Below, in pieces: positions 33,085 to 60,406 of a stretch of 64,000 nucleotides of DNA (the first letter of the stretch is position 1; each line of letters opens with the position of its first letter). This stretch comes from Verrucomicrobiia bacterium (GTDB taxonomy: Bacteria; Verrucomicrobiota; Verrucomicrobiia; Limisphaerales; UBA1319). Where the stretch lies: the NCBI GenBank assembly GCA_963664225.1, contig OY760937.1:864001-928000 (forward strand), written 5' to 3'. The notes below the pieces were generated by a model, which had not been told where the DNA came from, did no database searches, and saw only the letters and a list, made by a program, of their open reading frames with translations. The translations under genes were made by a program, and so were the position numbers.

Positions 33085-36000
33085 TCACGGTTTTTCGAGC
33101 CGGAAATACTCCTGCGGCAGGCCGTTGGTGGGTAGAAGGATGCGGCGCATGCCGTTGCTGGTGATGATTTCGGTTTGCACCGGCTGCCAGGATACCGGCG
33201 GGACGAGGTTTGTCGCGGATTTCAATTGGCAATCTCCCAACGCTTCCGGCCAGGCCAGCGTCCACTGTCCCTGAACCGCTTCCATGCCCAGGATCAAGGG
33301 ATGAGGCATTACCTGAAAAGTGCGCTCGACCGGAGCGGCGGCGGCAGTGACAGAGTTGCCTTCCTGGGTCGCCCGGACTGTGATGGTCCCGAGATTGGTC
33401 CAGGTGAACAGGTTGCTAATGACTGTGGCTGGCCCGCTGACCAGGGTGAAGGTCACCGGCAAGCCGCTAGTGGAGGTGGCCTGTAACGCGATTGATCCAT
33501 CGGTGCCATGCTGGTTGGTAACGGCGTCGAAGGTAATGGTTTGAGGGAACCAAATCTCGGAGGGAAAGATCATCAGGCCGTTGGTGCCGGAGGCGACATA
33601 GACATAATTGCCCGCCACAGTGACGTCCTGGGCCTGACCGCCGGTGTCATAACCACCCACGCGTTGCGGAGCGGTCGGGCTGCTGACGTCGATGATTTGC
33701 AAACCATTAGTGTCTTCCGCGATATAGGCATAATTGCCAGACACGGCAACACCCGAAACAATGCTGCTGGTGTTGTATGTGCCCACAAGCGTAAGACTGG
33801 CCGGATTGCGGATATCGACGATCTTGAGGCCGCCGTGGGCGTTCGCCAAATAGATATAGTTCCCATGCAGGGCAAAATTCGAAATCATAAGGCCCGCAGA
33901 ATATCCACCGGGAACTGATACAGGCATGAATGGATTGGTAATGTCCATTGCATATAGAGTGTTGGGCGACAAGCTGCATTCAAAGGCGTAATGCCCGGAC
34001 ACAGCGACGCGCCTGCCATTATACGTTGTTGGATTAACTTTGCTTGCGAGCTTCGGTGCGGCTGGATTTCGAATGTCGATTACGAGCAGCGGACCTGTTG
34101 GAGGTAAATAAAAGCCATACGCCACATAGGCATAATTTCCGACCACCGTAACATCATTGAGGGAGTTATTTGTGGAAGTATAGGTACCCACGACCTGAAG
34201 CGTGCTTGGATCGTGTGCATCGATGATCTTTAGAACGTCGCGTCCATCCACCAAATACAAATAGTTTCCAGCTACTGCAAGGCGCTGAGACTGGCCGGTT
34301 GTGGCAATTCCACCCACACGCACCGGCGCGGCGGGTTTGTGAATGTCCAGGACAACGAGACCCGCCTTTCCCGCGCCCACATAGGCATAATCTCCAGACA
34401 CCACCACCGATTGTGCGGAACCTAGTCCCACGTCCTTCCATGCACCCACCTGACCCAAACGGGCGGTGGTGTCGAACAACACTTGGTATAAAGTTTCGGG
34501 ATCATAGACGCCGTTGCCCGGTTGTTCCGCCCGAACGGTGACTGGCCCTGAATTGGTCAGCAACAACGAACCATTCTCGATTGTCGCCGGGCCGTTGACC
34601 ACTTCAATAAGCACGGGCAAACCGGCGCTGGAGTGGGCGGATATGGGCAGAGGTTGATTCAATATCGGTGCGCTGGGCAGGATATCGAATGCGAGCCTCT
34701 GCGTGAGCATGCGGACTTGAAAGCTGCGTTCGACCGGCGCGGCGGCGGCATAGATGTCGTTGCCAGCCTGAGTCGCCATGACTGTGATGGTTCCGGTGTT
34801 GGTCCAGGTGAGAATGTTGTTTGAAATGGTCGCTGGTCCGCTGACCAGGGTCAAGGTCACCGGCAAGCCGCTGGTGGCGGTCGCTTCCAAGACGACGGGG
34901 GCATTTGAGATGATCTGGTCGGCAATGGCGTTGAAGGTCAGGGTTTGGAAGGTTCGTATATCGGATTTAAGGATGTGCAAACCCTGGTTGGCCTCCGTCA
35001 TATACAAATAGCCATTTGTTCCAACAAGCCCCACAGCCACTCCACTTCCAAAACCGCCAAGGCTTACGGGCGTCATTGGGTTGCTGATGTCGATCACCTG
35101 CACCCCATTTGTGCCGTTCGCGATATAGGCGCGATTGCCGGAGACGGAAACGCCAGTGATGGAATTGGTGGTGACATAGCCGCCGGTGAATGCTGGGGCC
35201 ACGGGGTTGGCGATGTCGATGATTTGAAGGCCATTTGTGCCATCCGCCACATAAGCATAATGGTCTGCCACTGCGAGATCGTAAGCGGTGCCGGGAGTGC
35301 CCAATCCACCCACCACTTGAAGCGCGGTGCGATCGCTGACGTCGATGATTTGCAAACCGTTTGTGCCATCGGCCACATAAGCATAATGGCCTGCGACAGC
35401 GACATTGTAAGCGGTTCCGGGGGTATCCAATCCGCCCACACGGAGCGGGGTGGTGGGGTCGCTGATGTCGATGATCTGGAATCCAGAGTCACCGTCAGCC
35501 ACATACGCATCTGTGCCCGCCACGCAAACGCGTCTGGCATCGCCGGGGGTATCCAATCCGCCGATACGAATCGGAGCGGATGGAATACTGATATCAATGA
35601 TCTGCAATCCGGCGGAGCCATCGGCGACATAGGCATTACTACCGTTCACGGCAACATCCCGCGCGGTCCCACTGGTGTCATAACTGCCGACAAGCTTGGG
35701 CGCGTCCGGGTTGGTGATATCGACTGCCTGCAATCCGGCTGCACCTTCCGCCAAAAAGACCATGTTTGTTCCAATGGCCATGCCACCGGCTGATCTGACG
35801 GTCGCGTACCCACCCGCGTGTTGGGGTGATTTCGGATTGCTGATGTCCACCACTTCCAGACCGCCATTGTCCAATGCGATAAAAGAGTACCCCCCCGACA
35901 CCGCAGTCCCTTGAGCGTATCCAAGTGTCTTATAGCCGCCGGAAAGCGTAGGGGCAGTCGGATCGGTGATGTCAATAATTTTAAGCCCCAAGTCACTACA

Positions 36001-36876
36001 AGCAGCTAAGACGTAATTCCCGGCAACAGAAAACCGAGCCATGCTAAAGGTGGACTTGAAGCCACCCAGGCGCACCGGTGTGGCTGGATTGCTCATGTCG
36101 AAGATTTCGAGAGCTCCAGCTGAAGTGCCAATGAAAAGCTTATTATCGGCACCTTTGAGACTGGCAATACCTCCGGTAACAGGCGCACTCCCCAATCGTT
36201 GAGGCTCGGCAGGATTGCTGACATCCAAGACGTCAAAACCACCACTGGCATTAGCAATGCAAATATTCTGCCCAACCACGGCGAGACCCCAATTCCCGAT
36301 TGGTTTGTACCAGGATAAGAACTCGGGAGCTTCGGGAGTGCTAATGTCAATTACTGTTACGGCACCGTTATCGTTCATCAAATATGCATTATTTCCGATT
36401 ATACCGACATCCTCGGCTGATCCGCTCCCTTTATATCCGCCGATTAATTTGGGGGCGGAAGGATTGCTGACATCGACAATCTCAAAACAGTTTCCCCGCC
36501 CAGACAATGATAAGTAAACACGCTGACCAATCACAGTTATACCAGTCACATTAATCAAATCGGCTTTTGGCTGGTAGCTTCCCACGGCTGATGGCGTGAG
36601 TGGGTTGCTGATATCCACGACAATAAAGCCGCCGGTATGTGAAGTGACCAAATAGTCCTGGTAAATTATATATGCATAGTTGCCTGAAATGACCAAATCG
36701 CTGGTTACGGCGCTTTTATGCCCGGGCCAGACGCCATTTGAGACAAAGACATTGGTCAGTTCGGCCTGGACGGTGAGGCTGGCGCAGAGGGCCAGACAAA
36801 GACAGAGCGCGAGAGACCGGAAACCGTACAGAATTCGAGTGGGAAACAACTCAGTAATGATCGCCATGGTATTCAT
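33085..36876 (-). CDS. Large secreted LVIVD-repeat beta-propeller protein with three small Ig-like modules and a C-terminal module
   Basis: Many V.V.G.YAYVADG..GLQIIDIS.P..P..VG repeats; QT.TF...ATSGLPV...VSGPAT modules; signal peptide. Confidence 0.88.
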   Translation of the reverse strand: MNTMAIITELFPTRILYGFRSLALCLCLALCASLTVQAELTNVFVSNGVWPGHKSAVTSDLVISGNYAYIIYQDYLVTSHTGGFIVVDISNPLTPSAVGSYQPKADLINVTGITVIGQRVYLSLSGRGNCFEIVDVSNPSAPKLIGGYKGSGSAEDVGIIGNNAYLMNDNGAVTVIDISTPEAPEFLSWYKPIGNWGLAVVGQNICIANASGGFDVLDVSNPAEPQRLGSAPVTGGIASLKGADNKLFIGTSAGALEIFDMSNPATPVRLGGFKSTFSMARFSVAGNYVLAACSDLGLKIIDITDPTAPTLSGGYKTLGYAQGTAVSGGYSFIALDNGGLEVVDISNPKSPQHAGGYATVRSAGGMAIGTNMVFLAEGAAGLQAVDITNPDAPKLVGSYDTSGTARDVAVNGSNAYVADGSAGLQIIDISIPSAPIRIGGLDTPGDARRVCVAGTDAYVADGDSGFQIIDISDPTTPLRVGGLDTPGTAYNVAVAGHYAYVADGTNGLQIIDVSDRTALQVVGGLGTPGTAYDLAVADHYAYVADGTNGLQIIDIANPVAPAFTGGYVTTNSITGVSVSGNRAYIANGTNGVQVIDISNPMTPVSLGGFGSGVAVGLVGTNGYLYMTEANQGLHILKSDIRTFQTLTFNAIADQIISNAPVVLEATATSGLPVTLTLVSGPATISNNILTWTNTGTITVMATQAGNDIYAAAAPVERSFQVRMLTQRLAFDILPSAPILNQPLPISAHSSAGLPVLIEVVNGPATIENGSLLLTNSGPVTVRAEQPGNGVYDPETLYQVLFDTTARLGQVGAWKDVGLGSAQSVVVSGDYAYVGAGKAGLVVLDIHKPAAPVRVGGIATTGQSQRLAVAGNYLYLVDGRDVLKIIDAHDPSTLQVVGTYTSTNNSLNDVTVVGNYAYVAYGFYLPPTGPLLVIDIRNPAAPKLASKVNPTTYNGRRVAVSGHYAFECSLSPNTLYAMDITNPFMPVSVPGGYSAGLMISNFALHGNYIYLANAHGGLKIVDIRNPASLTLVGTYNTSSIVSGVAVSGNYAYIAEDTNGLQIIDVSSPTAPQRVGGYDTGGQAQDVTVAGNYVYVASGTNGLMIFPSEIWFPQTITFDAVTNQHGTDGSIALQATSTSGLPVTFTLVSGPATVISNLFTWTNLGTITVRATQEGNSVTAAAAPVERTFQVMPHPLILGMEAVQGQWTLAWPEALGDCQLKSATNLVPPVSWQPVQTEIITSNGMRRILLPTNGLPQEYFRLEKP

Positions 36877-37240
36877 AATTTGAATGCTTCGATTATTTTT
36901 AGCGACGATCGTTACAGCGACGAGTTCGTGTGGCTAATGGGATCGTTTATAAATCTCATCGCACAAGAATAGCAATAAAATAATAGGACCTTTGGTGGCC
37001 AGAGGATGAAAGAGTTCTGGCCTGGTGTTCCGATCCGCCAGCTCGGGGGGGGATTTCGCTTTCAGAAGCCTCACGCGAAGCCGCGAAGGAGGAAAGGAAA
37101 GTGTTTAGGGAATGGCCTCATCCTGGCGCTCTGATACGGCTTTTACAGGTTATCAAGCGTTGGCGAGGACCAGGCTCCTGGGGGGGACGATTCCGTTCAA
37201 ACTGAGGAGTTTTGTGGTGTGCCCCGCGTTTTTTTCAATC

Positions 37241-37342
37241 GTCGCTACGCGACTGATGGGGCTGACGGGAACAGAGATCGCGTTTGAATTCCCAACCGCG
37301 GGTTAAAAACTCACGGCTACCATCGTGCCGTCGCTCCGCGAC
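37241..37342. repeat. REP-like composite palindromic element
   Basis: GTCGCTACGCGAC (37241-53) and GTCGCTCCGCGAC (37330-42) mini-hairpins flanking imperfect CCGCGGGTT-AAA-AACTCACGG. Confidence 0.6.
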
Positions 37343-37423
37343 GAGGCCCTAAGACAGGATTAACAGGATGGACAGGATTGGAAAAAGGGCGGGAGGAAAT
37401 GGATAATTGACCACAAGAAAGTG

Positions 37424-37591
37424 AAGAGCCAAGAGCCAAGAGCGAAGAGCCAAGAGCCAAGAGCCAAGAGCGAAGAGCCAAGAGCCAAGAGCCAAGAGCC
37501 AAGAGCCAAGAGCCAAGAGCCAAGAGCCAAGAGCCAAGAGCCAAGAGCCAAGAGCCAAGAGCCAAGAGCCAAGAGCCAAGAGCCAAGAGCC
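37424..37591 (+). repeat. Heptamer tandem array (AAGAGCC)x24, units 3 and 7 = AAGAGCG
   Basis: 168 bp read directly. Confidence 0.97.
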
Positions 37592-37646
37592 AAGGGCAGA
37601 GGGCTTGGGCAATGGGGAGATCGCATGGAACAAGGGTCGGGGGGAG

Positions 37647-37703
37647 TTGACAACAAGACTGATGGGATTAGACTGGAAACCATAAAAACCGATGGGGTTT
37701 CCA
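37647..37703 (+). promoter_or_regulatory. Sigma70-type promoter with overlapping inverted repeat (candidate TetR operator)
   Basis: TTGACA(37647)-N16-TAGACT(37669); TGGAAACC-N14-GGTTTCCA at 37674-37703 running into the tetR ATG. Confidence 0.65.
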
Positions 37704-38452
37704 TGGAGCTAAAAACGAAAATAAATGTTGACCGTTCCAAGGGCCGCAGTGCCGCGCGCAGGCCCCGGGTGATGGACGCCACGCCGAGTTTTGGTGTGAC
37801 GAGTGTGAGCGCGCCGGGCTTTGCGCCAGCGGTGCGGATGGAGCCGGTCGATCCTGTGCGGGCGCGCATATTAAAAGCGGCGGAGGATCAGTTTTTGACC
37901 AACGGATTCAGCACAGTCACCATGGAAGACATGGCGGTTGGCCTGGGCATGAGCAAAAAGACCATGTACCGGCATTTCCGCAGCAAGGAGCAGTTGGTCA
38001 AGATGATGCTTTTGAGCCGGCTCAACAGGATTCATCGACATCTGGAGGGGATTCACAGCGATCCGACGCTGGATGTGGTCACCCGCATGAAACAAATCCT
38101 GGAGTTTCTCACATTGCGACTTGGAGAGGTCAAACAGCCGTTTTTCCGCGATCTTCAGCGACATGCGCCGGAAATTCTTAAGCTGGTGGATAATTACCGC
38201 ATGCGGGCCATCCCGGCCATTTTCGGAAAGGTGTTCGAGGAAGGGCAGCGGATGGGGTTGATGCGTGAAGACATGCCAAAGGAACTGGTGATCGAGATGC
38301 TGCGGGTGTGCGTGCAAAACATCATCAATCCCGAGGTTCTGACCCGGCTGGACCTGCCCTTGCGAAAGGCTTTTGAGATGATATTGGACATGCTATTTAA
38401 CGGAATCATGACCGCCGATGGAAAAATTGCGTATGAAAAAATCCGGTCTTAA
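37703..38452 (+). CDS. TetR/AcrR family transcriptional regulator
   Basis: RILKAAEDQFLTNGFSTVTMEDMAVGLGMSKKTMYRHFRSKEQL HTH; start uncertain. Confidence 0.9.
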   Translation: MELKTKINVDRSKGRSAARRPRVMDATPSFGVTSVSAPGFAPAVRMEPVDPVRARILKAAEDQFLTNGFSTVTMEDMAVGLGMSKKTMYRHFRSKEQLVKMMLLSRLNRIHRHLEGIHSDPTLDVVTRMKQILEFLTLRLGEVKQPFFRDLQRHAPEILKLVDNYRMRAIPAIFGKVFEEGQRMGLMREDMPKELVIEMLRVCVQNIINPEVLTRLDLPLRKAFEMILDMLFNGIMTADGKIAYEKIRS

Positions 38453-39419: not shown

Positions 39420-39423
39420 CGCG

Positions 39424-41483: not shown

Positions 41484-41776
41484 TGGGCCTGGCGCAGGGC
41501 AACATTCCCTTCCTTTTAGCGTCAAATTTCCCGCCCATTAGCGGTTACAATCCATCCCGCGCCAGCCCCATGCGTCAACCACGCTCCAAACCATCCAATC
41601 GTTCAAGAACCCGTCCAATATTCCTTTTGACAACACGCCCATCTCAAATCAACATTCTTTTCACGACCAAATTGCTATTGCGCATGAATGTCTCCAAGCC
41701 ATACGACAAGTCCTGCCAACGGACTTCAATCCACTCAGTGCCGACGCGCATCCGCCAAAGTCCCCTATCCATTGGC

Positions 41777-41873
41777 CATGAGCATGACGCAACCAACCGG
41801 CCCAGGTGTGTGCCCCGCCACCCCGGTTCCGGCTCACTCTATGAATACGATGCCCGTCGGCCGGAGATTGGCA
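41777..41873 (+). pseudogene. Possible degenerate RHS/YD-repeat fragment
   Basis: HEHDATNR...GS..YEYDA, then with a 1-nt shift at 41855 VGRRLA, giving two YD-like repeats. Confidence 0.3.
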
Positions 41874-41958
41874 AATCGGCCCCCCGGTTGGATAAGAGTA
41901 ATTGATTCTCACCATCTTACATCATTCCTAAAACTGCCGCGGCAATGGTGAACACCTC

Positions 41959-42997: not shown

Positions 42998-43029
42998 TCG
43001 CCCCCTGAACAGAAGCCAGGATCATTTTC

Positions 43030-44487
43030 ATGCTTAATCAACTGACCATCTCGGAAGTTCAAAACAAACTGGCGCGTCGGGAGGTTTCGGCGCGCGAAGT
43101 CACCCAGGCCTGCCTGGACCGCATTCAGAATGTCGATGGGCGCGTTCACGCTTTTTTGAGCGTGGATGCCGCCGATGCGCTGGTGCAGGCGGATCGCGCC
43201 GATGCCCAGCGGAAGGCGGGAGCGACGGACAAACCGTTGCTGGGAATCCCCATTGGAATCAAAGATGTGATCGCGGTGAAGGATCAGCCGTTGAACTGCG
43301 CGTCGAAGATTCTGGGGAAATATGTCTCGCCTTATGACGCCACGGTGATCGAAAAGCTCAAAGCTGCCGGGGCGATTGTTTTTGGCCGGCTCAACATGGA
43401 TGAATTTGCGATGGGCAGCTCGACGGAGAATTCGGCCTTTGTCACGACGCGCAATCCGTGGGATGTGACGCGGATTCCGGGAGGGTCCTCGGGTGGTTCG
43501 GCCGCCGCCGTGGCCTCGGACGAGTGCCTCTGCGCGCTGGGATCGGACACGGGAGGTTCCATCCGCCAACCCGCGGCGCTGTGCGGCGTGGTGGGGTTGA
43601 AACCGACTTATGGCCGGGTGTCGCGTTTCGGTCTGGTCGCATTCGCCTCTTCACTGGATCAAATCGGGCCGATGACCCGCAGCGTGTCGGATGCGGCGCG
43701 TGTTTTGAGCGCGATCAGCGGCAAGGATGAGCGCGATTCGACGAGCGTGTCCGAGCCGGTGCCGGATTACGCGGCGGGGCTGACGGGGAATATTCGCGGG
43801 CTCAAGCTGGGAGTGGCCAGGGAATTCATGCTGGGAGGACTGGACCCGGAGATCAACCAGGCGATGCAGAACGCGATCAAGAAATATCAGGAGCTTGGGG
43901 CTGAAGTGGTGGAAGTGTCGTTGCCGCATTCGGAATATGCGGTGGCCACGTATTATATTATTGCCACAGCGGAGGCCAGCGCGAATCTCGCCCGGTTCGA
44001 TGGCGTTCGTTACGGGGCGCGAGTCGATGGAAAAGACCCGATCGAGATGTATTCCAAGACGCGCGGGGCTGGATTTGGGCCGGAGGTCAAGCGGCGCATC
44101 ATTCTGGGGACCTACGTGCTGAGCAGCGGCTATTACGATGCGTTTTATCTGCGAGCGCAGAAGGTGCGCACGCTGATCCGGCAGGATTTTCTCAAGGCCT
44201 TCGAGAAGGTGGATGCGATCATATCGCCGACCACACCCACACCGGCGTTCAAGATCGGTGAGAAATCCGAGGATCCGCTGCAGATGTATTTGTCGGATAT
44301 TTTCACGATTTCCTGCAATCTGGCGGGGATTTGCGGATTGAGCATGCCGTGTGGATTTTCCAGCAATCCCAAGCTGCCGATCGGGCTGCAACTGCTTGGG
44401 AAACCTTTTGGTGAAGCCACCTTGTTGAACCTGGCACATGCTTATGAACAGGCGACCACCTGGCATATAGAGAAACCCGCTCTTTGA
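43030..44487 (+). CDS. gatA: Asp/Glu-tRNA amidotransferase subunit A
   Basis: [57 protein letters not shown]. Confidence 0.96.
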
Positions 44488-45218: not shown

Positions 45219-46307
45219 TTATCGAGTTGTCGGCGGATCGGACTTTTCCATTGATGAGAGATGAGTCTGGAGGTAACTGCGGACCTGGTCGCATTCTGCG
45301 CTGACTGAATCCACGCTGGCCAGGGCATCGGCGGTTGCGTGTGTCTGTATCAAGTTTTGTAGTTTTTCGAATGCCATTCCGATGGATTTCATGCCGCAAA
45401 ACTCGCTGACGCTGGCGCCCATTTTCACCCACCCGACGGCCTTCGATCTGGAACCTTCGGTCAGGGCCGCCTTGATTTCATCAATGCGCATGCGAGTTTG
45501 CTCCAGATAAAGCAAGGCCATCTCGTGCATATGCTGCGCGTCACCGTTTGCGCATGCCAGAAGCGCCTGCATGTCCACGGGGCCTGTCTTATCCAAAAAG
45601 AGGGCTCTTAATTCGTCGGGTATCCCAGGTGGGAGATGCGAAAGCGGGTCGGGAGGGACTTCCGATACCGGGCGACCAGTTTGAGTGGAAGAATCCGGGG
45701 TGTTGGAATCGGATGCCTGGCTCACACATGCGGCGCTTTGAACCGCTGTGGACGAGGGTCCCTGGACGGGCGGCATGCGTTCCAACCGCGGCGCGCGTTT
45801 TGCGGGTTTATCGGGTTGGGGGCCCATGGAGGAGAACCATTCCTGCAGGGCGACCGGGCAACCGAGCGAGGATATCCGATGGCGGAAGAGGAATGCGCCG
45901 GTGGATAGCATGCCCATGCAGAAAATAAAACGCAGCGCCTTGCTTGAACGGTTGTGGCTTTCCTGAATGGCCAATTTTTCCAATTCACTTTCCCTTTCGA
46001 TCGCGTTTTTGCGGGCGACGGCTTCGATGCGCAGGCCTTCAACCAGACGGCTTTTGTATTGCATGCGCATCTGGAGGCGTTGGCGGCCCATTTCCTCCTG
46101 TTGGCGGATGGAATCGCGCGCGCGCTGGTCTTGAATGGCTTTTTTCTGGGCTGGAGAGGCCTGTTCCATGCCGGGAATCACTGTATCCATCGCAGCAAAC
46201 AGACTCGCGAAGAAAACGGTGGCGAAAAGAAGCACGAGGCTGATTAGCGCCATCGATTTCCGGGTTCTGAGGGTTGTGTCCTGCATTGTAAACAAAGAAA
46301 GGGGCAT
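45219..46307 (-). CDS. Membrane protein: exported coiled coil, TM, Pro/Ser linker, C-terminal Hpt-like helical domain
   Basis: Two hydrophobic segments; C-terminal D..ALL....GD...M.EM..LYLEQ....I.EI..AL..G pattern typical of Hpt domains. Start uncertain. Confidence 0.6.
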   Translation of the reverse strand: MPLSLFTMQDTTLRTRKSMALISLVLLFATVFFASLFAAMDTVIPGMEQASPAQKKAIQDQRARDSIRQQEEMGRQRLQMRMQYKSRLVEGLRIEAVARKNAIERESELEKLAIQESHNRSSKALRFIFCMGMLSTGAFLFRHRISSLGCPVALQEWFSSMGPQPDKPAKRAPRLERMPPVQGPSSTAVQSAACVSQASDSNTPDSSTQTGRPVSEVPPDPLSHLPPGIPDELRALFLDKTGPVDMQALLACANGDAQHMHEMALLYLEQTRMRIDEIKAALTEGSRSKAVGWVKMGASVSEFCGMKSIGMAFEKLQNLIQTHATADALASVDSVSAECDQVRSYLQTHLSSMEKSDPPTTR

Positions 46308-46319
46308 TGTTTTTTGGTG

Positions 46320-48020
46320 TCAGGTGCCAAACCCTTCATGGGGCGTCAATTCCTCGATGTGGCGCACCAGGACACGATTGGCGATGGGCAGTCCGAGGTC
46401 GATATAGCGGTTGGGATCGTCGCTGTAGCGGCTGTGAACACGGGGATCATAAGTGAATCGGAGGGAAGAGTTAAAGACGATGGCCTCGTTGCGGCAGATC
46501 ACGCTGCCGAAGAATTGGGAGTTGGCACCCGCCAGACGCATTGCGATGGCATGATTGCAATAATACACGCCATGAACGGTGTTCATGTTGTTGCTTGAGA
46601 TGTCGTCAAAACTCAGGCGCGAGCCATCGCCATTGGTTGGATAATAGGCGATGGCCGCAGCGCGCGCATCTGAGAATTGAATGTCGCTGGCGTAGTTGTA
46701 GGCGCCATCGATGGCGCCATTGCCATCGGCGTCATACCAGGCGCTGTCGGGAGTCCCATTGTTATCGGTGTCCAGATAGGGGGTGTTGTCATCAGGCGTA
46801 TGGGCAATGCCGTCTTTTCCAAGTTGCGATTCGTCGCCCACATTTTTTAAACCATAGGAGGCATTGTCATAGCAATAGCCCTTCCAATCCGCTGAATTGG
46901 GATTGCCACCGAAAATGGATTCGCGCACGGCAAATGCGACAAGGTCCTTCTGGTTGTTGACGGCAGATTTAACCCACGCATCGCGGTTGGTGGCGGACAT
47001 GCCTGTGGGAGGAGTGCTGAAATCCGGGCCGTTTTTGTATATCACGTCCCCAGCGATATAGAGATTCCTGCCCACATACAGGGTGCCCACACCTGTGACG
47101 ACGCCCTTGATAATGACATCACCCGGGATGAGCACCGGGCCGACGACATTGATGGGCGCGTTCGAGGTTCCCACGAGGTAAAGTCCGGATTTGGTGTTGT
47201 TGTGCCAGGCATCGACAACCAAATTCGTTCCGACATAAAGTTTGCCCTGTGCGTTTAGCGCCTTGGTTTTGTAATAACTCATGTCCAGGAGATTGGGCAT
47301 GGGAAGACGAGGCGCACCGCTGTGCACAAAGAGGGTTGGATCGGTTCCGGCAATTCCGTGAAAAGGAGGGTTTCCAGCCAGGGGGTCAATTGGATTGCCG
47401 TTGGATTGGATTTCCCCGTTGGCCACGAGACTGCCATTGACGGTGGGATAATCGCGGAAATCGAAATCCCAATTGGCCCGGTTGTCGCCATTTCCAGTGA
47501 TGGTATTGCCCCACCACCAGCCCCAATTGTTTAAGAAGTATTCGTAATCGAAGACCTGGCTGGGCGGATTCTTCTGAATGGTCATTTGAAGAGTGCGCAC
47601 CTTGACCCCCACTTTGGAGGAAGCGGTGACCAGGTAGTAATTGGCAATGCCGTTGGGATGGTTGTTAATGGTCAGCCAAGCGCTTTGGAACATGGAGTCC
47701 GGGCTGCCGGTGAGGCTTGCTAAATAGGGGAGGTCGATGGATCCGCCCAAGGTGGAGTATTCTCCCAGGAATGGGGCGTTCGTGCCGCCCTGGTCGGCGT
47801 CCGCAATTTTTTGCGCGGCCCAGTTGAGGACGTTTTCCGAGTGATAATAGGCCTCGGTCCATTGGGAACGCTGGTAGGCTGAACGCAGGCGGAAGGTGCT
47901 GACCTGGAGCAAGGAAGCGGCTGAGATGGCCAGGATTGCACCCAAGACAATGGTAATGGCCAGCGCGGAACCGCAGGTCTGTCTGGGAGCGCCGGGGTAT
48001 TTAATGAAAATGCCTTTCAT
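46320..48020 (-). CDS. PilX/GspK-like minor pilin with large C-terminal domain
   Basis: G|SALAITIVLGAILAI prepilin-like start lacking Glu5, AYYHSE motif, YYLVTASSKVG..VRTL; DxDxNG loops. Confidence 0.7.
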   Translation of the reverse strand: MKGIFIKYPGAPRQTCGSALAITIVLGAILAISAASLLQVSTFRLRSAYQRSQWTEAYYHSENVLNWAAQKIADADQGGTNAPFLGEYSTLGGSIDLPYLASLTGSPDSMFQSAWLTINNHPNGIANYYLVTASSKVGVKVRTLQMTIQKNPPSQVFDYEYFLNNWGWWWGNTITGNGDNRANWDFDFRDYPTVNGSLVANGEIQSNGNPIDPLAGNPPFHGIAGTDPTLFVHSGAPRLPMPNLLDMSYYKTKALNAQGKLYVGTNLVVDAWHNNTKSGLYLVGTSNAPINVVGPVLIPGDVIIKGVVTGVGTLYVGRNLYIAGDVIYKNGPDFSTPPTGMSATNRDAWVKSAVNNQKDLVAFAVRESIFGGNPNSADWKGYCYDNASYGLKNVGDESQLGKDGIAHTPDDNTPYLDTDNNGTPDSAWYDADGNGAIDGAYNYASDIQFSDARAAAIAYYPTNGDGSRLSFDDISSNNMNTVHGVYYCNHAIAMRLAGANSQFFGSVICRNEAIVFNSSLRFTYDPRVHSRYSDDPNRYIDLGLPIANRVLVRHIEELTPHEGFGT

Positions 48021-48026
48021 GACATG

Positions 48027-48629
48027 TCAGGGATTTCGCATTTTGACCGTGAAAGTCCGGAGAATGGTGTTCGTTTTGAATCCATTACCGAGCCGGCGTC
48101 CCGAGGAGCCGCAATCGTCCATTTCCAACCAGATATTTAAAGTCGAGCTGTCGGGCACGCCTCCAGATTTCAGACTTGGATAAAAAAAGAGTTTGCGCAC
48201 GGCGACCACGGCGTTTGTTTTGAAGTAGTAGGTGATGTCCCCGGGAACGGCGCGGTCAGGGTCGTAAAGGACGTTTTTTTGAGTGGAATTAAAGGCAATT
48301 TCTTCGCGGGGGTAATCAGGGGCCTGGCCTTTGGCGACAATGATTTTTCGATAAACATCGGCTCCGTTCTCGGCGGTCTTATCTCCGAAAATGACGCTCT
48401 CGTTTTCGCTCATGTCCCGGATGGCGCGTGTGAGTTGGTCCTGCAGATTTCCGGCGGCCTGTTGGAGGGTGGCGTCGGCAAGGGTTTTGCGTTGTTCCTT
48501 GACGACTTCGAGCATCAGCATCATAAGCCCGCCGATGGCGCCGACACCAATGGCGCTCGCAATGAGAACTTCCACCAGGGTCATTCCCGCGCGGAGGTTT
48601 TCTCTGAGATTGGAGCGTGGGAGGAGCAT
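48027..48629 (-). CDS. PilW/GspJ-like prepilin-type protein
   Basis: RAG|MTLVEVLIASAIG N-methylation motif. Confidence 0.8.
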   Translation of the reverse strand: MLLPRSNLRENLRAGMTLVEVLIASAIGVGAIGGLMMLMLEVVKEQRKTLADATLQQAAGNLQDQLTRAIRDMSENESVIFGDKTAENGADVYRKIIVAKGQAPDYPREEIAFNSTQKNVLYDPDRAVPGDITYYFKTNAVVAVRKLFFYPSLKSGGVPDSSTLNIWLEMDDCGSSGRRLGNGFKTNTILRTFTVKMRNP

Positions 48630-48640
48630 GGCATCAAGGA

Positions 48641-49174
48641 TCAAAGGTCTTTTACGCGGACCATGTCCATGCGGAGGGTTTGTTTGTTGCCGAGATTCAT
48701 GGGGGCATTCCACTGGAGCAAGAGCTGGATATGTTTGTCATGGGGGATGCCGACGACCGCCCTGGTTTCCAGTAAAACGGACATTTGGGGATTGCGCGGA
48801 CTTAACCAGACCAGGTCGGGATGGAAGGATTGAAAGTCGATGCTGTCAATGGCGAACCAGTTGGTGCTTATGGGAATGGTAATCCTTGTGCCTCCCGAGG
48901 CGCCATCGTAGAGGGCGTTAATGGGGGCGCCGCCATTGATTTCGGCAAAGGGCAAGCCTTTTGCCAATTCGAGGTAGTGCGCGGCAAAGTCGAGCATGAT
49001 GCCTCGTTCATGGTCTTTAACGGTTTGTATCCTGCTGAAGCTTAGAATTGAGAAATTTGCCAGGACGAAGAGGCTTAGTATGACGACCGCGATCATGACT
49101 TCCGGCAAGGAAAAACCGTCGTTTTCGGAAAATTCCAATAACTCCCCTGATGAATTCTGCGGCTCCAAAATCAT
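48641..49174 (-). CDS. PilV/GspI-like prepilin-type protein
   Basis: DG|FSLPEVMIAVVIL N-methylation motif. Confidence 0.8.
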   Translation of the reverse strand: MILEPQNSSGELLEFSENDGFSLPEVMIAVVILSLFVLANFSILSFSRIQTVKDHERGIMLDFAAHYLELAKGLPFAEINGGAPINALYDGASGGTRITIPISTNWFAIDSIDFQSFHPDLVWLSPRNPQMSVLLETRAVVGIPHDKHIQLLLQWNAPMNLGNKQTLRMDMVRVKDL

Positions 49175-51467: not shown

Positions 51468-51514
51468 TCGCGCGGGGCGGAGCGGTCCCTGTGACCCTGG
51501 GGTAAGGTTGAGGC

Positions 51515-53026
51515 ATGCCTATCACGGATCCAATACGGAAGAAGCTTTCGGATTTGCCTCACAAGCCGGGCATCTATTTGATGAAGGACCGCTTTGGCAC
51601 TGTGATCTATGTGGGCAAAGCGCGCGATTTGCGGCGGCGGGTCAGCCAGTATTTTCATCCGTCGAGGCGGCAGGGATGGGACATCAAATTCAACGCCCTG
51701 GTGGATTCGATCTACGACCTGGATATTCACCAGGTCCGCAGCGAGCCTGAAGCCCTGCTTTTGGAGAGCAAGCTCATCAAGGAGTTTCACCCGCGTTACA
51801 ATGTCAGTTTAAGGGACGACAAGCGGTTTCTGCTCATCAAGATCAACCTGAACGATCCGATCCCGCGCTTCACTTTAACGCGGCTACAGCAGGAGGATGG
51901 GGCGCGGTATTTCGGGCCGTTTGTGCATTCGGCCGCAGCCCGGCGCACGCTGGAACTGGCGCGCAAACAATTCCTGGTTCGCGGCTGCCGGGTGCTGACG
52001 CCCGGACCGGCGGATTACAAGCATTGCATGTACGCCAACCTGAAGTTTTGCACGGCGCCGTGCATTGGCAATGTGACGCGCGAACAGTATCTGGCGCAGG
52101 TCACCGCCGCCTGTGATTTCATGGGAGGGCAATGTGAGACGCTGGTGGCCCAGCTTGAGGAGGATATGCGCAAGGCGTCCGCGAAGCTCGATTTCGAAGA
52201 GGCCGCCGAATTGAGGGACACGCTGGAGGATTTGAAGCGCACGACTGAAAAATCCGCGAAATTCTCGCGCCTGCCTTACACCCTCCCGCTGGCGGTCGAT
52301 CCACAACGCGATTTATCCGAGTTGGCGGCGGTGCTGGGATTATCGGGACCGCCCAAACGGATTGAAGGTTTCGATATATCGAACATCAGCGGGACTTTTG
52401 TGGTGGCCTCGCTGGTGGCCTTCAAGGACGGAAGACCGGATCGTTCGAATTACCGGCGTTTCAAGATGAAGTCGGTCGATGGCCAGAACGATTTTGCGTC
52501 GATGGCCGAAACGATTCGCCGACGCTACACCCGGGTGTTGCGGGAGGCCCGAGAGGAGGAGGCCGCCGGGACATCAAACGCGCGCGGGTTGCCGGATTTG
52601 ATTTTGATCGACGGTGGAAGGCCGCAGTTGGTGGCGGCGGCGGCGGAGTTGGAACGGTTGGGCTTGAGTCGGATTCCCATGATCGGGCTGGCGAAGGAGT
52701 TTGAGGAAATCCATCGTCTGGATCGGGCGGAACCGCTTCGGCTGAAGACCGATTCCGAAGCGTTGAAATTGCTTCAGCGCATTCGGGATGAGTCCCACCG
52801 GTTTGCGAATAATTTTAATGCTCAGTTGCGCTTGAAGAAAATATCCGAAAGCATTCTGGACGAATTTCCCGGCATCGGGGAGCAGCGCAAAGCGGCTCTG
52901 CTGCGAAAATTTGGCTCCGTGCAGCGGTTGCGCCTGGCCACCGAGGAGCAGATCGGCGCGGTGGCTGGTTTCGGCGGAAAAACAGCGGCAGAGCTCAAGG
53001 CATTCCTGGTGGCACGCACCGCTTGA
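51515..53026 (+). CDS. uvrC: Excinuclease ABC subunit C
   Basis: PGIYLMKD, YVGKA, LLESKLIK, YFGPF, UVR domain, IEGFDISN, LIDGG, QRIRDESHRFA, HhH. Confidence 0.95.
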   Translation: MPITDPIRKKLSDLPHKPGIYLMKDRFGTVIYVGKARDLRRRVSQYFHPSRRQGWDIKFNALVDSIYDLDIHQVRSEPEALLLESKLIKEFHPRYNVSLRDDKRFLLIKINLNDPIPRFTLTRLQQEDGARYFGPFVHSAAARRTLELARKQFLVRGCRVLTPGPADYKHCMYANLKFCTAPCIGNVTREQYLAQVTAACDFMGGQCETLVAQLEEDMRKASAKLDFEEAAELRDTLEDLKRTTEKSAKFSRLPYTLPLAVDPQRDLSELAAVLGLSGPPKRIEGFDISNISGTFVVASLVAFKDGRPDRSNYRRFKMKSVDGQNDFASMAETIRRRYTRVLREAREEEAAGTSNARGLPDLILIDGGRPQLVAAAAELERLGLSRIPMIGLAKEFEEIHRLDRAEPLRLKTDSEALKLLQRIRDESHRFANNFNAQLRLKKISESILDEFPGIGEQRKAALLRKFGSVQRLRLATEEQIGAVAGFGGKTAAELKAFLVARTA

Positions 53027-53040
53027 GCAGTTGTGCCGTT

Positions 53041-55533: not shown

Positions 55534-55748
55534 TGAAAGCACGGCACAAAGATAGATGATTTTGTAAAAACGCCAATCGTGAATCGCTTAGAAAACACAG
55601 AAAAATGGTTTTAAGAGATTGTTACAGGACAATCTGTGAAAGCGACAATCCACCTTTTAAATCCGCGATGCGCCATGAGCGATTGGATTTGGAATTGGAA
55701 TTGAATCCAATGGAGTCACAGGTCCCGCCGTCTCAAGGCGGGGGCACG

Positions 55749-56324
55749 TTACTTTGCTTTCATTTTTGCGATGGCCTCCTGCATTTCACTTAAGTGAACC
55801 GATGCCGAGTTGGTATCCGTGATGTGCGCGATTTTACCATCTTTGGCGATGAGGAAACTGACACGCCGCGCCATGGTTGCTTCGGGAGCTTTTCGCGCGC
55901 CGTAAAGATCCGCCAGTTTGCCATCGGTGTCCACCAGCAGCGGGAAATTCAATTCGTTCGAAGCCCGGAACTTTTTATGGCTTTCCGCGGAATCAAAACT
56001 GACTCCCAGCACCTGAACGTCATCGGCACTCAACTGGCTCATGCGATCCCGAAGCCCACAGGCCTCGGCGGTGCATCCGGGTGTGCCGTCCTTGGGATAG
56101 AAATAGAGCAGGACGGTCTTTTTGCCGGACAGGTCGGCAAGCTTCCAATGCGTGCCATCCTGATCGACGGCCTCGAAGGGTGGGGCGATTTGACCGACCT
56201 TTGGCTTTTCCGGGGTGCCAGCAGCGGCGGTGTCCGCATGAAGAGAGTTCAGCCAAAACACAGTTGCCAGCAGACCGACTGCTGCGGCCCTGGCGACGTT
56301 CCATGGAATATATCGAGCCATCAT
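55749..56324 (-). CDS. bcp: Exported BCP/PrxQ-type peroxiredoxin
   Basis: LYFYPKDGTPGCTAEAC, GVSFD, signal peptide. Confidence 0.88.
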   Translation of the reverse strand: MMARYIPWNVARAAAVGLLATVFWLNSLHADTAAAGTPEKPKVGQIAPPFEAVDQDGTHWKLADLSGKKTVLLYFYPKDGTPGCTAEACGLRDRMSQLSADDVQVLGVSFDSAESHKKFRASNELNFPLLVDTDGKLADLYGARKAPEATMARRVSFLIAKDGKIAHITDTNSASVHLSEMQEAIAKMKAK

Positions 56325-56500
56325 GGCCCAATTTCGCTCAAGTCGCACAGGATGCAACCGGCGGCGAGCCCCAGTTTGATTTTAATGAATTAGAGTTTTG
56401 TTGCGCTTAACGAAGCCCCGAAAGCATGGGTAATTATCGAATGAATTGCTTTTTAAAATGCTGCGTTGACAATTGTAACGATTAAGGAAACTCTGCGTAA

Positions 56501-59500
56501 ATGAGGCATGATTCAGGTTGTATTTTCGGGCTGTTTGCCGCTATTTCAATACTTAGTTGTTGCACGGTTCTGGCGCAACCTTCGAGCACCCCTGAGTTGA
56601 ATTTTCCAGTTGCTGACTCGACGGTTCTTACAGCGGTTGAAACCAACGGGATTCTTTACGTCGGCGGCTACTTTACTCAAATTGGGCCATCGACCGGAGC
56701 TTTTGCGGCCGTGTCTCCAACGTCCGGGGTTCCAGCGCGGCCATTTCCGTATTTTAGCGGCACCGTGTCGTGCAGCATACCTGACGGCAAAGGCGGGGTT
56801 TATGTGGGGGGCAGCTTTGTGACTATTGGAACCGTTGTGACGACAAACCTGGCGCACCTGGGTGCAGACCTGACCTTGGATCCGAGCTTTGCATTCGCCA
56901 TCGATGCCGGAGTGACCGCCTTGGCCGTTTATAACGACCAACTCCTGGTTGGCGGCAGTTTCAATGCGATCAACGGCCAGAGTCGATCCAATCTGGCCCA
57001 GGTCAATCTTGTCTCAAAACAGGCAGAGGCGTTTGGCCTGCCGATCGATGGTCCGGTGCAAGCGCTGGTGGTCAGCGGGGACCGGTTGTACTTGGGGGGT
57101 GTCTTTACTCACATTAATGATGTGACTCGCAATTACCTGGCATGCGTGGATCTTGCCCGTGGTGAACTAACCGCCTGGGATCCCGCGCCGGACTCGAATT
57201 TCAATCTGGGTGTCAATACACTGGTGGCCACGGACGGGCGCATCTATGTGGCTGGCGACTTTAATCGACTGGCCAGTACCGCGCGCGCTCAGGTGGCCGC
57301 GTTCGATGCGACAACAGGACAGTTGTTGGACTGGGACGCGCACGTCTATGTGCCGTACACCGCACAGACGGTTCAAGCGCTGGCCGTGTCGAGCAATGCC
57401 GTTTATATAGGGGGCAATTTTGCCAGTCTGGGAGGACAATCCCGCAGTCACCTCGGAGCTGTGGATACAATCACTGGCAGCGTATTGCCCTGGCAACCGG
57501 GCATCCCTTACAACGCGGTGCGGGCGTTGGCCGTGTCCGGCAATACCGTATATGTCGGCGGTGATTTTCCGGGAATTGGAATCGATGGTCCCCAATATCT
57601 GGCCGCAGTGAACGGGAGTTCCGGCGCGGTTTTACCATGGACGCCCGCGCCGGGTGGGACAGTGCTGAGCATCCTTCCCTTGAATAATCAGGTATTTGTT
57701 GGGGGGGCCTTTGGATCCATTGGCGGGATCAACCGCCAAGTGGTGGCGGCCATCGATTTGTCCACGGAAACGCCAACCAGTTGGGATGCTCATATGATGG
57801 CTAACGGCGCCACCGGAAGTTTTGTGAGTTCACTGGTTTTGAGCGGTGAGTCGCTCATTCTTAGCGGCTGGTTTTATGGCATTGGCGGTGAACTGCGCGA
57901 TTCGTATGGAGCTGTTCGTTTGGATGACGCGAGTGTTTTGCCAATTGACGGAAGCGTTCTTCCGCAGCCCGGCTATCCGCCAAGGTTATCGGGCCTTCTT
58001 TTCGCAGGGAACAATTTGATTATTGCAGCCACTTACGCCAATCCGGTGCCGGTTGTGTTCGATGCGGTTACCGGCCTGCAAGTGGACTGGGATTTCGGTG
58101 TGGATGGAGGCATCAGTTCATTTGCCGCCACAAGCAACACGCTCTATATCGGAGGAAGTTTTGCAATTGCTGGAGGACAACCACGCGCGAACCTGGCCGC
58201 GTTCGATATTGCCACCCGCCAATTGCTGCCATGGCATCCCATTGTGAATGGTTCAGTCGCAACGATATTGGCCCGGGATCAGACGATCATCGCCTATGGA
58301 AACTTCCTGACCGCCAACGGCCAGTCCCGAACGAATCTGGCCGTGTTTGACGCCGTCTCTGGCGATCTGGCCCTTGGGCCGACAGGCTTGGTTTTGGATG
58401 GCGAGATTCGCGATATAAACGCCACTCAAAATGCGTTGTATCTGGCTGGAAATTTTAACCATGTCAATCAAGAGACGAGGAGTTGCTTTGCGGCCGTTGA
58501 CCTTCTCACCGGACAGGTTCGGCCCTGGAACCCCGGGGTTCCCACCGTGTCGGTTAATTATGAGGCCAGAGGATGGAAGACCCTGATTGCAGCCGACAAG
58601 CTCATTATCGCTGGAAGTTTTTCCGCGATTGGCGGTAATCCGAGGACAGGGCTGGCCGCCTTTGCTTTGACCAACCTGCCACCAAAAGTCCAGATACTCA
58701 TTCCCACGAACAATACGGTTTTGCATGCCCCGGCACAAATTCCGCTCGAAATTCAAGCCAGCTCTCCTTCCAACGCGATTGCGCGCGTGGAGGTTTATTG
58801 CAGAACCAACCTCATCGCAAGCACCACGAATGGATCGTTTGCGACCAACTGGGTCGTGCCCAGGCATGTGGGCGACTACCTGGTGACCGCCGTAGGCTAT
58901 GACCGATACGGCGAGTCCGCGTTTTCGCCTGCCGCACGGATTACCGTTAATTTACCAACCGATTATATTCCTCCGACGGTCAGCATCACATTTCCCCAGA
59001 GCAACGCTGTCTATGCTCCATTCAGCACGATCCCTGTGCAGACTGAAGTGAATGCGCCGAAAAGTTCCGTTGAGAAATTGCAGGTTTTATTGGGGACAAA
59101 TGTGTTGGCCACATTCACCAATGCTCCCTACACATTTTCACTGACCAACATGTCACCCGGAACGTATTCCGTCACAGCGCTGGTGGAGGACGAATTTGGA
59201 ATAACTGCAACGAACGGACCGGTGGCGTTCAGAATCAACAGCCCGCCTCACGTCTTCCTGGTAAATGCCCTCTATGGAATCGTTATGGGTTCGCACACTA
59301 ACTTGCAGCTTACAGCTCCGGCCACCGATGCGGATGGTTTTATCAGCAATGTGACCATTTACAATGACGGTGACGTTATCGCTTCCTTCACAAATGCCCC
59401 GTTCACTTTTAATTGGACCAATCCTCCGGCCGGGTATTACGCCTTTACAGCGGTTGCGACGGACGATTTCGGGTCGAAGGCCACGAGTTCTGTAATGAAG

Positions 59501-60406
59501 GTCACGGTTTACCCGGGACCGAAATATCTTCAGGTGTTGGATAATAAGGACACCAATGTGACATTCGCAGGTTCCTGGAATACTGGCCCGGATGGTTACC
59601 TCGGGAGTTATCGATTTGCTTACGGTTCAACTGAAGCGGCCACAGCCACGGCCACATGTCGCCCGCACATCCCCGCAAGCGGGCCTTACGACGTTTACAT
59701 TTATTACATGAGAAGAATCATTGCATCCACCAGTTCTCAATGGCAAATCTCTTACAATGGAGGGGTCACAAACATTATCGTTGACCAAGCTTACCGGGGA
59801 GGAGCCGGCAAATGGTCTCTGCTTGCATCAGGTATAAACTTTATGGAAGGGACCAACGGATTTATTGCCTTATCCAACCTGGGGGACACCAATCAGATTG
59901 TGATTATAGACGCCGTTCGCGTGGTCTCCTCAACGGTGCCATTTGTGGTCAGTCAACCACTCAGCCAGTCGGTTAAAATTGGGAAATCGGCCACTTTGTC
60001 TGTAAGCGCCACGGGAAGCCCGCCGCTTTCCTATCAATGGAAATTCAATGGGACCGATATTACGAATGCCACGAGCACCAACCTGGTGGTTGCCAATGTC
60101 CAGCCTGACAAAGCGGGGGCTTATTCTGTCGTGGTCAGCAATTTTCTGTCTTCGGCGATTAGTACCAGTGCCATATTAACCCTGGCCGCACCGTCGGCTC
60201 CGAGACTATCAGCGATCTGGACCCCCAGCGAGGGCGTGATTCAATTATTGCTGAACAGCGATCCTGGGGTAGCGTTCACCATTGAAACTTCCACCAATAT
60301 GGTGGAGTGGACGACCTTTATGCAGATTCCAAGTGGGACTGGAACGAATGCGTTCAGCGACACCGTTACAAGCGATGTTCGGCGCTTCTATCGCGCCAGG
60401 TGGTAA
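56501..60406 (+). CDS. Large secreted surface protein: beta-propeller repeats, three bacterial Ig-like domains, golvesin/CBM-like domain, Ig domain, C-terminal module
   Basis: Repeated LYVGG.F......R..LA..D..TG....W.P; PP.V.I..P / Y..TA.A.D..G modules; QPLSQSV..G.SATLSV.ATGSPPLSYQW; signal peptide. Confidence 0.85.
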   Translation: MRHDSGCIFGLFAAISILSCCTVLAQPSSTPELNFPVADSTVLTAVETNGILYVGGYFTQIGPSTGAFAAVSPTSGVPARPFPYFSGTVSCSIPDGKGGVYVGGSFVTIGTVVTTNLAHLGADLTLDPSFAFAIDAGVTALAVYNDQLLVGGSFNAINGQSRSNLAQVNLVSKQAEAFGLPIDGPVQALVVSGDRLYLGGVFTHINDVTRNYLACVDLARGELTAWDPAPDSNFNLGVNTLVATDGRIYVAGDFNRLASTARAQVAAFDATTGQLLDWDAHVYVPYTAQTVQALAVSSNAVYIGGNFASLGGQSRSHLGAVDTITGSVLPWQPGIPYNAVRALAVSGNTVYVGGDFPGIGIDGPQYLAAVNGSSGAVLPWTPAPGGTVLSILPLNNQVFVGGAFGSIGGINRQVVAAIDLSTETPTSWDAHMMANGATGSFVSSLVLSGESLILSGWFYGIGGELRDSYGAVRLDDASVLPIDGSVLPQPGYPPRLSGLLFAGNNLIIAATYANPVPVVFDAVTGLQVDWDFGVDGGISSFAATSNTLYIGGSFAIAGGQPRANLAAFDIATRQLLPWHPIVNGSVATILARDQTIIAYGNFLTANGQSRTNLAVFDAVSGDLALGPTGLVLDGEIRDINATQNALYLAGNFNHVNQETRSCFAAVDLLTGQVRPWNPGVPTVSVNYEARGWKTLIAADKLIIAGSFSAIGGNPRTGLAAFALTNLPPKVQILIPTNNTVLHAPAQIPLEIQASSPSNAIARVEVYCRTNLIASTTNGSFATNWVVPRHVGDYLVTAVGYDRYGESAFSPAARITVNLPTDYIPPTVSITFPQSNAVYAPFSTIPVQTEVNAPKSSVEKLQVLLGTNVLATFTNAPYTFSLTNMSPGTYSVTALVEDEFGITATNGPVAFRINSPPHVFLVNALYGIVMGSHTNLQLTAPATDADGFISNVTIYNDGDVIASFTNAPFTFNWTNPPAGYYAFTAVATDDFGSKATSSVMKVTVYPGPKYLQVLDNKDTNVTFAGSWNTGPDGYLGSYRFAYGSTEAATATATCRPHIPASGPYDVYIYYMRRIIASTSSQWQISYNGGVTNIIVDQAYRGGAGKWSLLASGINFMEGTNGFIALSNLGDTNQIVIIDAVRVVSSTVPFVVSQPLSQSVKIGKSATLSVSATGSPPLSYQWKFNGTDITNATSTNLVVANVQPDKAGAYSVVVSNFLSSAISTSAILTLAAPSAPRLSAIWTPSEGVIQLLLNSDPGVAFTIETSTNMVEWTTFMQIPSGTGTNAFSDTVTSDVRRFYRARW

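Follow-up and report, generated by a model that had tools for sequence, protein, structure and literature searches.

Selection for Thr-Asn in the exported proteins of Limisphaerales-type Verrucomicrobiota, a candidate sequon for protein modification

In two large exported proteins encoded in a 64,000-nucleotide stretch of a verrucomicrobial genome, an LVIVD-repeat beta-propeller protein and a multidomain protein, threonine followed by asparagine (Thr-Asn, TN) is far more common than the reverse dipeptide (NT), which raises the question of whether TN is a short motif under selection in proteins that leave the cytoplasm and, if so, what such a motif might be for. The whole stretch, referred to as the window, covers positions 864001-928000 of contig C1, the single contig of the 5.78-Mb genome G000 (~55% G+C). 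The best 80 relatives of the UvrC protein encoded in the window, at 57-74% identity, stem nearly all from metagenome-assembled genomes of Verrucomicrobiota, Limisphaerales or Pedosphaera, about ten being labelled as other groups; the source organism is therefore a subdivision-3 Verrucomicrobium.

Excess of Thr-Asn in exported and periplasm-facing sequence

Genes were predicted with a codon-usage open reading frame (ORF) caller written for this analysis (3982 genes in G000), and the products were sorted into classes by crude rules for signal peptides, lipoboxes, prepilins, transmembrane segments and Tat motifs. Expected dipeptide counts were calculated for each protein from its own composition, and therefore proteins rich in Thr or Asn cannot generate an excess; NT served as the composition-matched control. 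TN tops all 400 dipeptides of the genome, with 6015 occurrences against 3999 expected (observed/expected ratio, O/E, 1.50; z 32) at an O/E of 0.87 for NT. The dipeptide is enriched in signal-peptide proteins (O/E 1.74, 2918 against 1678 expected, rank 2) and in the membrane class (1.63, rank 1) and is not enriched in cytoplasmic proteins (1.02, rank 164), with NT at 0.85-0.89 in these three main classes. The claim of the original prediction that composition does not explain the asymmetry thus holds after control for Thr and Asn in every single protein. TN outnumbers NT in 527 exported proteins and is outnumbered in 217, the exported O/E lies between 1.57 and 2.07 across all length bins, and the top 71 proteins contribute half of the exported net excess. 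Within 204 multi-pass membrane proteins, which were oriented by the positive-inside rule, the O/E is 1.49 in outside loops (124/83.1) and 0.91 in inside loops (63/68.9). Confinement of a motif to non-cytoplasmic proteins and periplasm-facing parts, as used to recognise O-glycosylation of the Bacteroidota type, was accordingly found for TN as well.

In the window, recounting yielded exactly the numbers first reported, 18 TN and 4 NT in the LVIVD protein and 23 TN and 5 NT in the multidomain protein, where some six to seven TN are expected in each. Only one of 20000 shuffles attained 18 TN in the former, and none of 20000 attained 23 in the latter. The clustering described for the C-terminal half of the multidomain protein was also recovered, since 20 of its 23 TN fall into residues 701-1301 (4.3 expected). 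This protein consists of a propeller, three Big_7 domains, a Golvesin_C domain, an Ig domain and a C-terminal domain, and its N-terminal half, a DUF5122-type propeller (56501-58600), carries 3 TN where 2.7 are expected; therefore, the motif is domain-selective, the Ig/Big_7/Golvesin half being enriched and the propeller half not. The sites are partly non-independent in both proteins: of the 18 TN in the LVIVD protein (Pfam LVIVD, 1.7e-164, 15 repeats), about seven belong to copies of the repeat core and another three to an Ig-like unit that is itself repeated, and TN is present in the repeated Big_7 domains of the other. As predicted, TN is missing from the cytoplasmic GatA, UvrC, RhlE-like helicase and Mrr and occurs once in the Ski2-like helicase. 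The recurrence of TN that had been noted in smaller exported proteins is real but weak on its own, as the non-cytoplasmic proteins of the window other than the two large ones together hold 26 TN and 19 NT at 19.3 TN expected (2, 2 and 2.2, respectively, in GH127).

The excess is specific for Thr and Asn: in exported proteins the O/E is 0.86 for SN, 0.89 for TD, 0.80 for TQ and 0.87 for NT. All synonymous ACN-AAY codon pairs contribute to it, in proportions equal to those of cytoplasmic genes, which rules out a cause at the DNA level. To account for paralogy, residues with a paralogue or an internal repeat in an all-against-all BLASTP comparison (52%) were masked; the remaining residues gave an O/E of 1.83 (1247/682) in exported and of 1.03 in cytoplasmic proteins. 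Paralogues and repeats were therefore rejected as an explanation, even though the counts of both window proteins are inflated by repeats. The probability that the excess is an artefact, whether of gene calling, class assignment, composition or paralogy, is, in our view, close to negligible. Genes and classes are indeed heuristic, and some helicases and nucleotidyltransferases of the window were miscalled as exported, but misassignment can only dilute the contrast; moreover, the expectation is specific for each protein, the NT control shows no excess, the signal survives masking of paralogues, and neither Escherichia coli nor other orders yield a signal when run through this pipeline.

The type of export is of particular interest. 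TN reaches an O/E of 1.77 in proteins with a Sec-type signal peptide and of 1.58 in those with a lipobox, compared to 0.85-0.98 in proteins with a Tat motif (n=73); TatC is encoded in G000. This contrast may be taken as an indirect sign of a modification of unfolded chains, with fold class as a confounder, and is at most suggestive of a Sec-coupled modification. It would, however, fit any factor that meets unfolded chains, so that TN might also be a non-covalent signal, read or avoided by a periplasmic chaperone or by an export factor that acts on Sec substrates in the unfolded state, or a means of resistance to proteases that the organism itself secretes. The large secreted subtilases are TN-rich themselves, and one of 2570 amino acids carries 66 TN where 18 are expected. 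We nevertheless regard a non-covalent signal as improbable: dozens of sites per protein, free turnover and a location in loops suit a coat better than a docking signal, and no chaperone or protease is known to recognise a Thr-Asn pair, a point on which no dedicated search was run.

Site context, fold and lineage distribution

A different explanation, and the main rival, is a structural habit of the lineage that involves no modification at all, in which Thr would end a beta-strand, Asn would start the turn, and the pair would have become fixed in the consensus of beta-rich exported domains. The C-terminal half of the multidomain protein (residues 700-1301), as modelled with AlphaFold2 (mean pLDDT 83.5), is in line with this idea: 17 of the 20 TN are predicted to lie in loops (13) or at strand edges (4), often straight after a strand, and 3 inside strands, with loops making up 33% of the residue pairs. 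In addition, TN is part of the LVIVD core, of the Ig-like consensus and of the consensus 'C..LTNI' of BspA-type leucine-rich repeats (LRR; ~195 sites, with Cys at -4), and 120 homologues of the Ig-rich half total 3707 TN against 1600 expected. However, the excess is equally strong where no paralogue or repeat exists, and it is not restricted to beta-rich folds. In exported proteins the O/E is 1.58 in disorder-like (low-hydrophobicity) and 1.79 in ordered segments, compared to 1.04-1.05 in both kinds of segment of cytoplasmic proteins, and it stays at 1.5-1.9 in every bin of helix-former content, with 1.64-1.75 in helix-rich exported proteins; the outside loops of membrane proteins share the excess. 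Cytoplasmic proteins reach 0.92-1.05 in the bins at or above 0.36, which hold the bulk of them. The two lowest bins, with 13 and 62 proteins, stand at 1.78 and 1.48, and we take their members for misclassified exported proteins. Furthermore, Ser does not replace Thr and Asp does not replace Asn, a restriction that would be uncommon if turn or capping propensities were the cause; conservation does not favour TN positions, and neither homologues from other lineages nor exported proteins of E. coli show an excess. A structural habit is therefore considered unlikely, while being the strongest of the alternatives.

The distribution among relatives was determined with the same pipeline on samples of 100-200 kb per genome, with a smaller extra sample for G048 and G038. 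The exported O/E of TN is 1.65 in a genome of the same genus and 2.41, 1.83 and 1.89 in three other genera of the family; in nine other families of the order it amounts to 1.90, 1.86, 1.84, 1.50, 1.38, 1.35, 1.09, 0.97 and 0.68. Three other orders of the class gave 0.45, 0.54 and 0.60, four genomes from outside the class 0.79, 0.52, 1.77 and 4.55 (4.55 owing to a single protein), and a 200-kb sample of E. coli K-12 gave 0.64; the values of G023 (30/17) and G007 (23/5, 18 of them in one protein) are uncertain. For cytoplasmic proteins, E. coli and all but two of the 20 genomes lie at about 0.7-1.2; only G069 (1.85) and G052 (1.51) fall outside. Thus, the trait is seen in all four relatives from the genus or family and in most of the order, that is, in Limisphaerales-like Verrucomicrobiota. 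A comparison of best-hit homologue pairs points in the same direction: in pairs with nine genomes that have the trait weakly or not at all, non-cytoplasmic proteins of G000 contain 130 TN (101 expected) and their partners 76 (86 expected), and partners from three same-order genomes are enriched (2.39, 1.74 and 1.67). Homologues elsewhere hence lack the excess, as had been anticipated for a lineage-specific motif.

In one trait-negative relative, G054, the O/E of non-cytoplasmic proteins is 0.40, mostly owing to one exported repeat protein of 4112 amino acids (loci L201-L210). This protein shows the opposite bias, with 2 TN where 44.9 are expected and 28 NT.

The residues around exported TN sites are also biased. 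Charged residues are depleted in the flanks, with Lys, Arg, Asp and Glu at 0.3-0.5 at position N+2; Ile, Ala, Ser and Thr are favoured at N+1, and Thr, Val and Pro are raised at N+2. The preference for Thr at N+2 (1.85) and the depletion of charge recur in relatives, for which genomes were pooled into 'TN+' and 'TN-' groups that are circular with regard to the TN value itself and were used solely for the specificity of neighbouring residues. The hexamer contexts are diverse, 4784 of 6002 being unique.

The Thr at N+2 bears on a further possibility, namely that Asn is the modified residue, by N-glycosylation or another modification, with Thr at -1 as determinant and an enzyme unrelated to STT3. 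Thr follows at N+2 in 11.5% of TN sites, compared to 8.0% at other Asn residues and a background of 6.8%, N-x-T stands slightly higher in exported than in cytoplasmic proteins (1.18 versus 1.05), and LTNIT, LTNVT and CTNLT figure among the frequent hexamers. Ser, by contrast, is not enriched at N+2 (6.5% versus 6.6%), and Ser or Thr occupies this position in only ~18% of exported TN sites; in the window, the N-X-S/T pattern is fitted by just 1 of the 18 sites of the LVIVD protein and 6 of the 23 of the multidomain protein, in agreement with the original prediction that most sites are not canonical sequons. Acidic residues, which bacterial PglB (D/E-X-N-X-S/T) needs at -2, are depleted near TN, with Glu at 0.56 two residues before Thr. 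Finally, a search for STT3, PglB and AglB with PF02516 gave no match in G000 (96% complete), and the positive control matched in four archaea. Classical N-glycosylation was rejected on the outcome of this search, and a modification of Asn by an unrelated enzyme appears quite unlikely.

Candidate machinery and other features

Genes for candidate membrane glycosyltransferases of the GT-C type are predicted in G000: one PMT, four PMT_2, two TMEM260-like proteins with TPR, one YfhO-like and one Agl23-like protein. Seven Wzy_C matches lie above the cut-off, a count in which O-antigen ligases or polymerases and PglL-like enzymes are taken together. The YfhO-like gene of the window (Table 1) was rejected as the source of the modifying enzyme, since full-length relatives are present in 13 of 13 same-order genomes, including trait-negative ones (none was found in three genomes of other orders). 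One TMEM260-like/TPR gene was discarded for the same order-wide distribution. Two PMT_2 genes were likewise dismissed: L224 was found in just one of the 20 genomes, and the second gene is order-wide, trait-negative genomes included.

The distribution of the Agl23/PMT-like gene is closer to that of the trait. It is found at 42-55% identity in nine of nine same-order genomes with a clear TN excess. A further same-order genome, G048, in which the excess is weak (exported O/E 1.38), has the gene with one in-frame TGA; this may point to a pseudogene, to an error in sequencing or to a stop codon that is recoded. A homologue with 41% identity is encoded in G023, a member of another class with an exported O/E of 1.77. 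At E <= 1e-15 the gene was not found in G052, G054, G038, G001, G027, G006, G016 and G007, and in G005 the only relative shares 31% identity. The three same-order genomes in which it was not found show the three lowest exported TN values of 13, a coincidence that by a hand calculation occurs in 1 of 286 cases if the genomes are independent. The gene thus tracks the trait in 20 Verrucomicrobiota genomes, but not in 31 Planctomycetota loci. No solved structure matched the Agl23-like protein by sequence at E <= 0.01.

The gene appears to be part of a two-gene module, in which it is translationally coupled to a gene for an exported discoidin (F5/8 type C) protein of 235 amino acids; its neighbours in G000 are a group II intron reverse transcriptase on one side and the nuo operon on the other. 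Among the loci L251-L330 with room upstream, a discoidin gene directly precedes the Agl23/PMT-like gene in 38 of 44 loci from Verrucomicrobiota or other groups and in 28 of 28 from Planctomycetota, so that, as judged from these gene predictions, the module is conserved across both phyla. Taken together, we regard the Agl23/PMT-like gene as a tentative lead to TN-linked machinery, with the odds rather against it.

Table 1. Positions and Thr-Asn counts of features in the window (plain coordinates) and elsewhere (genome prefix)
Feature	Position	Strand	TN	NT	Expected TN	Remarks
Exported LVIVD-repeat beta-propeller protein, 1263 aa	33085..36876	-	18	4	6.2	
Exported multidomain protein, 1301 aa	56501..60406	+	23	5	6.9	
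TN-dense C-terminal half of the multidomain protein, residues 700-1301	58598..60403	+	20		4.3	
Exported SLT lytic transglycosylase	12748..13320	+	3	1	0.4	
Beta-helix/PKD protein	16695..19235	-	6	3	4.4	weak taken alone
GatA, cytoplasmic control	43030..44487	+	0		0.7	
UvrC, cytoplasmic control	51515..53026	+	0		0.6	
YfhO-like GT-C membrane protein, 870 aa, possible periplasmic sugar transferase	9344..11956	+				Pfam YfhO 1e-07, above cut-off
Sugar-nucleotide and glycosyltransferase genes that immediately precede the YfhO-like gene	3724..9338	+				family matches
Agl23/PMT-like GT-C membrane protein gene	G000 3890598-3892211					Pfam PMT 8.9e-14; NCBIfam TIGR03663 'Agl23' 196 bits, cut-off 126
Discoidin and Agl23/PMT-like two-gene module	G000:C1:3889891-3892211 (L331:8891-11208)					
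Agl23/PMT-like gene with in-frame TGA	G048:C1:141428-143020					
TMEM260-like/TPR gene, rejected	G000 752895-755735					

The genes upstream of the YfhO-like gene are predicted to encode a nucleotidyltransferase, a 4,6-dehydratase, a C-methyltransferase, a 3,5-epimerase, a reductase and a GT2 glycosyltransferase.

Both large window proteins end in a module of about 70 residues with Trp-containing strands and a terminal R-F-Y-R-like motif (at the C-terminus of 36876-33085(-) and at 60150-60403(+)), which also ends many unrelated exported proteins (for example at G000 3607145-3608365 and G000 402132-403256). The module usually bears one to three TN itself and may be a shared sorting or anchoring domain. 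Elsewhere in the window, four genes in a row at 45219-49174(-) encode prepilin-like or unannotated exported proteins, of which products of 566 and 362 amino acids have no Pfam match at E <= 0.001, and two overlapping ORFs at 19440-20632(+), of 117 and 280 amino acids, resemble a two-part transposase of the IS3 type, as judged from their N-terminal sequences only. Among the other dipeptides of the genome, CH has an O/E of 1.91 in exported proteins, probably owing to CxxCH haem-binding sites, WM is twice as common as MW (671 versus 334), and GP is strongly under-represented (0.75).

A periplasmic modification and its known counterparts

Our analysis demonstrated an excess that survives composition control and is missing in homologues elsewhere; therefore, selection for TN in the periplasm-facing sequences that one bacterial lineage exports via Sec is well supported, and with it that part of the original prediction which invoked a short extracytoplasmic motif. 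The other part, a role of TN as glycosylation acceptor, is what we continue to infer, as are the modification itself, its glycan nature, the modified residue and the enzyme.

We propose that TN would serve as a short motif for recognition, selected for in proteins that pass the inner membrane in an unfolded state via Sec, and that its most likely purpose would be a general, lineage-specific protein modification on the periplasmic side. In the favoured version, Thr would be O-glycosylated by a membrane transferase of the GT-C type that uses a polyprenol-phosphate sugar, Asn after Thr would be the specificity determinant, and selection would act on having many sites, as expected for a surface glycan coat. 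That TN is the sequon of a lineage-specific modification coupled to Sec export, with O-glycosylation of Thr as the most plausible kind, is in our judgment somewhat more probable than all other explanations together.

Several observations weigh against this proposal. Many of the TN sites are predicted by the model to lie at strand-to-loop transitions, where Thr followed by Asn could be structurally favoured, and TN lies within the consensus sequences of whole domain families, that is, the LVIVD repeat, the BspA-type LRR and the Ig-like domains. In non-cytoplasmic orthologue pairs from the genus, TN is kept in 26 of 78 cases (0.33), compared to 0.31 expected from single-residue conservation and 0.35 for NT. 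Positional conservation thus gives no sign of function; TN sites turn over freely between relatives, and selection therefore seems to act on many sites rather than on particular positions. Trait-negative relatives also possess the YfhO-like protein and one of the TMEM260-like proteins, the 31 Planctomycetota loci encode homologues of the Agl23/PMT-like protein with 37-45% identity at a non-cytoplasmic O/E of only 1.17-1.19, and single TN-rich proteins occur in genomes without the gene (28 TN against 6.8 expected in G052, 18 against 3.4 in G007). Gene calls and the signal-peptide and topology classes follow our own crude rules rather than SignalP, and the relatives are known from their 100-200 kb samples only. 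Lastly, the Tat result is only suggestive, because actinobacterial O-mannosylation is reported, in PMC11727336, to reach Tat substrates too.

A modification directed by TN would have its closest counterpart in the O-glycosylation of Bacteroidota. According to a 2025 review (PMC12871550), the motif of that system, D-(S/T)-(A/I/L/V/M/T), represents the only known motif-driven bacterial O-glycosylation, is enriched in the proteomes of the phylum, and belongs to a transferase that is still undiscovered; the enrichment as described there is a direct precedent for taking a proteome footprint as a sequon. Both systems have in common a short motif in non-cytoplasmic proteins, a proteome-wide occurrence in soluble, periplasm-facing parts, and a footprint in one lineage. 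In G000, however, D-S/T is not enriched in exported proteins (O/E 0.79 for DT and 0.91 for DS), only Thr behaves like an acceptor, the putative determinant follows it instead of preceding it, and the phylum is a different one.

The GT-C enzymes of O-mannosylation (PMT/GT39 of Actinobacteria and eukaryotes, TMTC and TMEM260) transfer sugars from polyprenol-phosphate to Ser or Thr across the membrane, and G000 is predicted to encode PMT-, PMT_2- and TMEM260-like genes, but no TN motif has been described for PMT, TMTC or TMEM260. For human TMEM260, Thr is reported as the usual acceptor, within a motif that forms a long Pro/Gly pattern (bioRxiv 10.64898/2026.09.21.753134). Agl23 of Haloarcula hispanica is presented in PMC11182771 as a putative flippase for hexose-phosphate-dolichol, the sugar donor for extracellular N- and O-glycans, and as having moved lipid-linked oligosaccharide in liposomes. 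The archaeal protein thus handles the donor and does not recognise the acceptor, and its bacterial homologue differs in being paired with an exported discoidin-domain protein. Like PglB/STT3, the S-layer O-glycosylation of the planctomycete Kuenenia, a member of the same superphylum, acts at the surface or in the periplasm on a short motif, which is proposed in PMC5088730 to be G-T/S-X; Gly, however, is raised only 1.23-fold at -1 of TN. A limited literature search returned no description of a Thr-Asn motif for bacterial glycosylation in the sources it covered.

It is thus possible, although we would not call it probable, that TN is the sequon of a second motif-driven general glycosylation system of bacteria, a Sec-coupled O-glycosylation pathway which would coat the exported proteome of Limisphaerales-type bacteria, perhaps with patchy outliers elsewhere in the phylum, and in which the pair of Agl23-like and discoidin proteins may participate. 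If so, proteome-wide sugar coats would have arisen more than once, and a second motif would exist in a phylum that is abundant in soil and freshwater. Trait-positive and trait-negative relatives would provide a route to the missing enzyme, and enzymes or adhesins of these bacteria produced in E. coli would be devoid of the modification. A simple sequence rule would then be at hand to predict modified sites in thousands of uncultured genomes.

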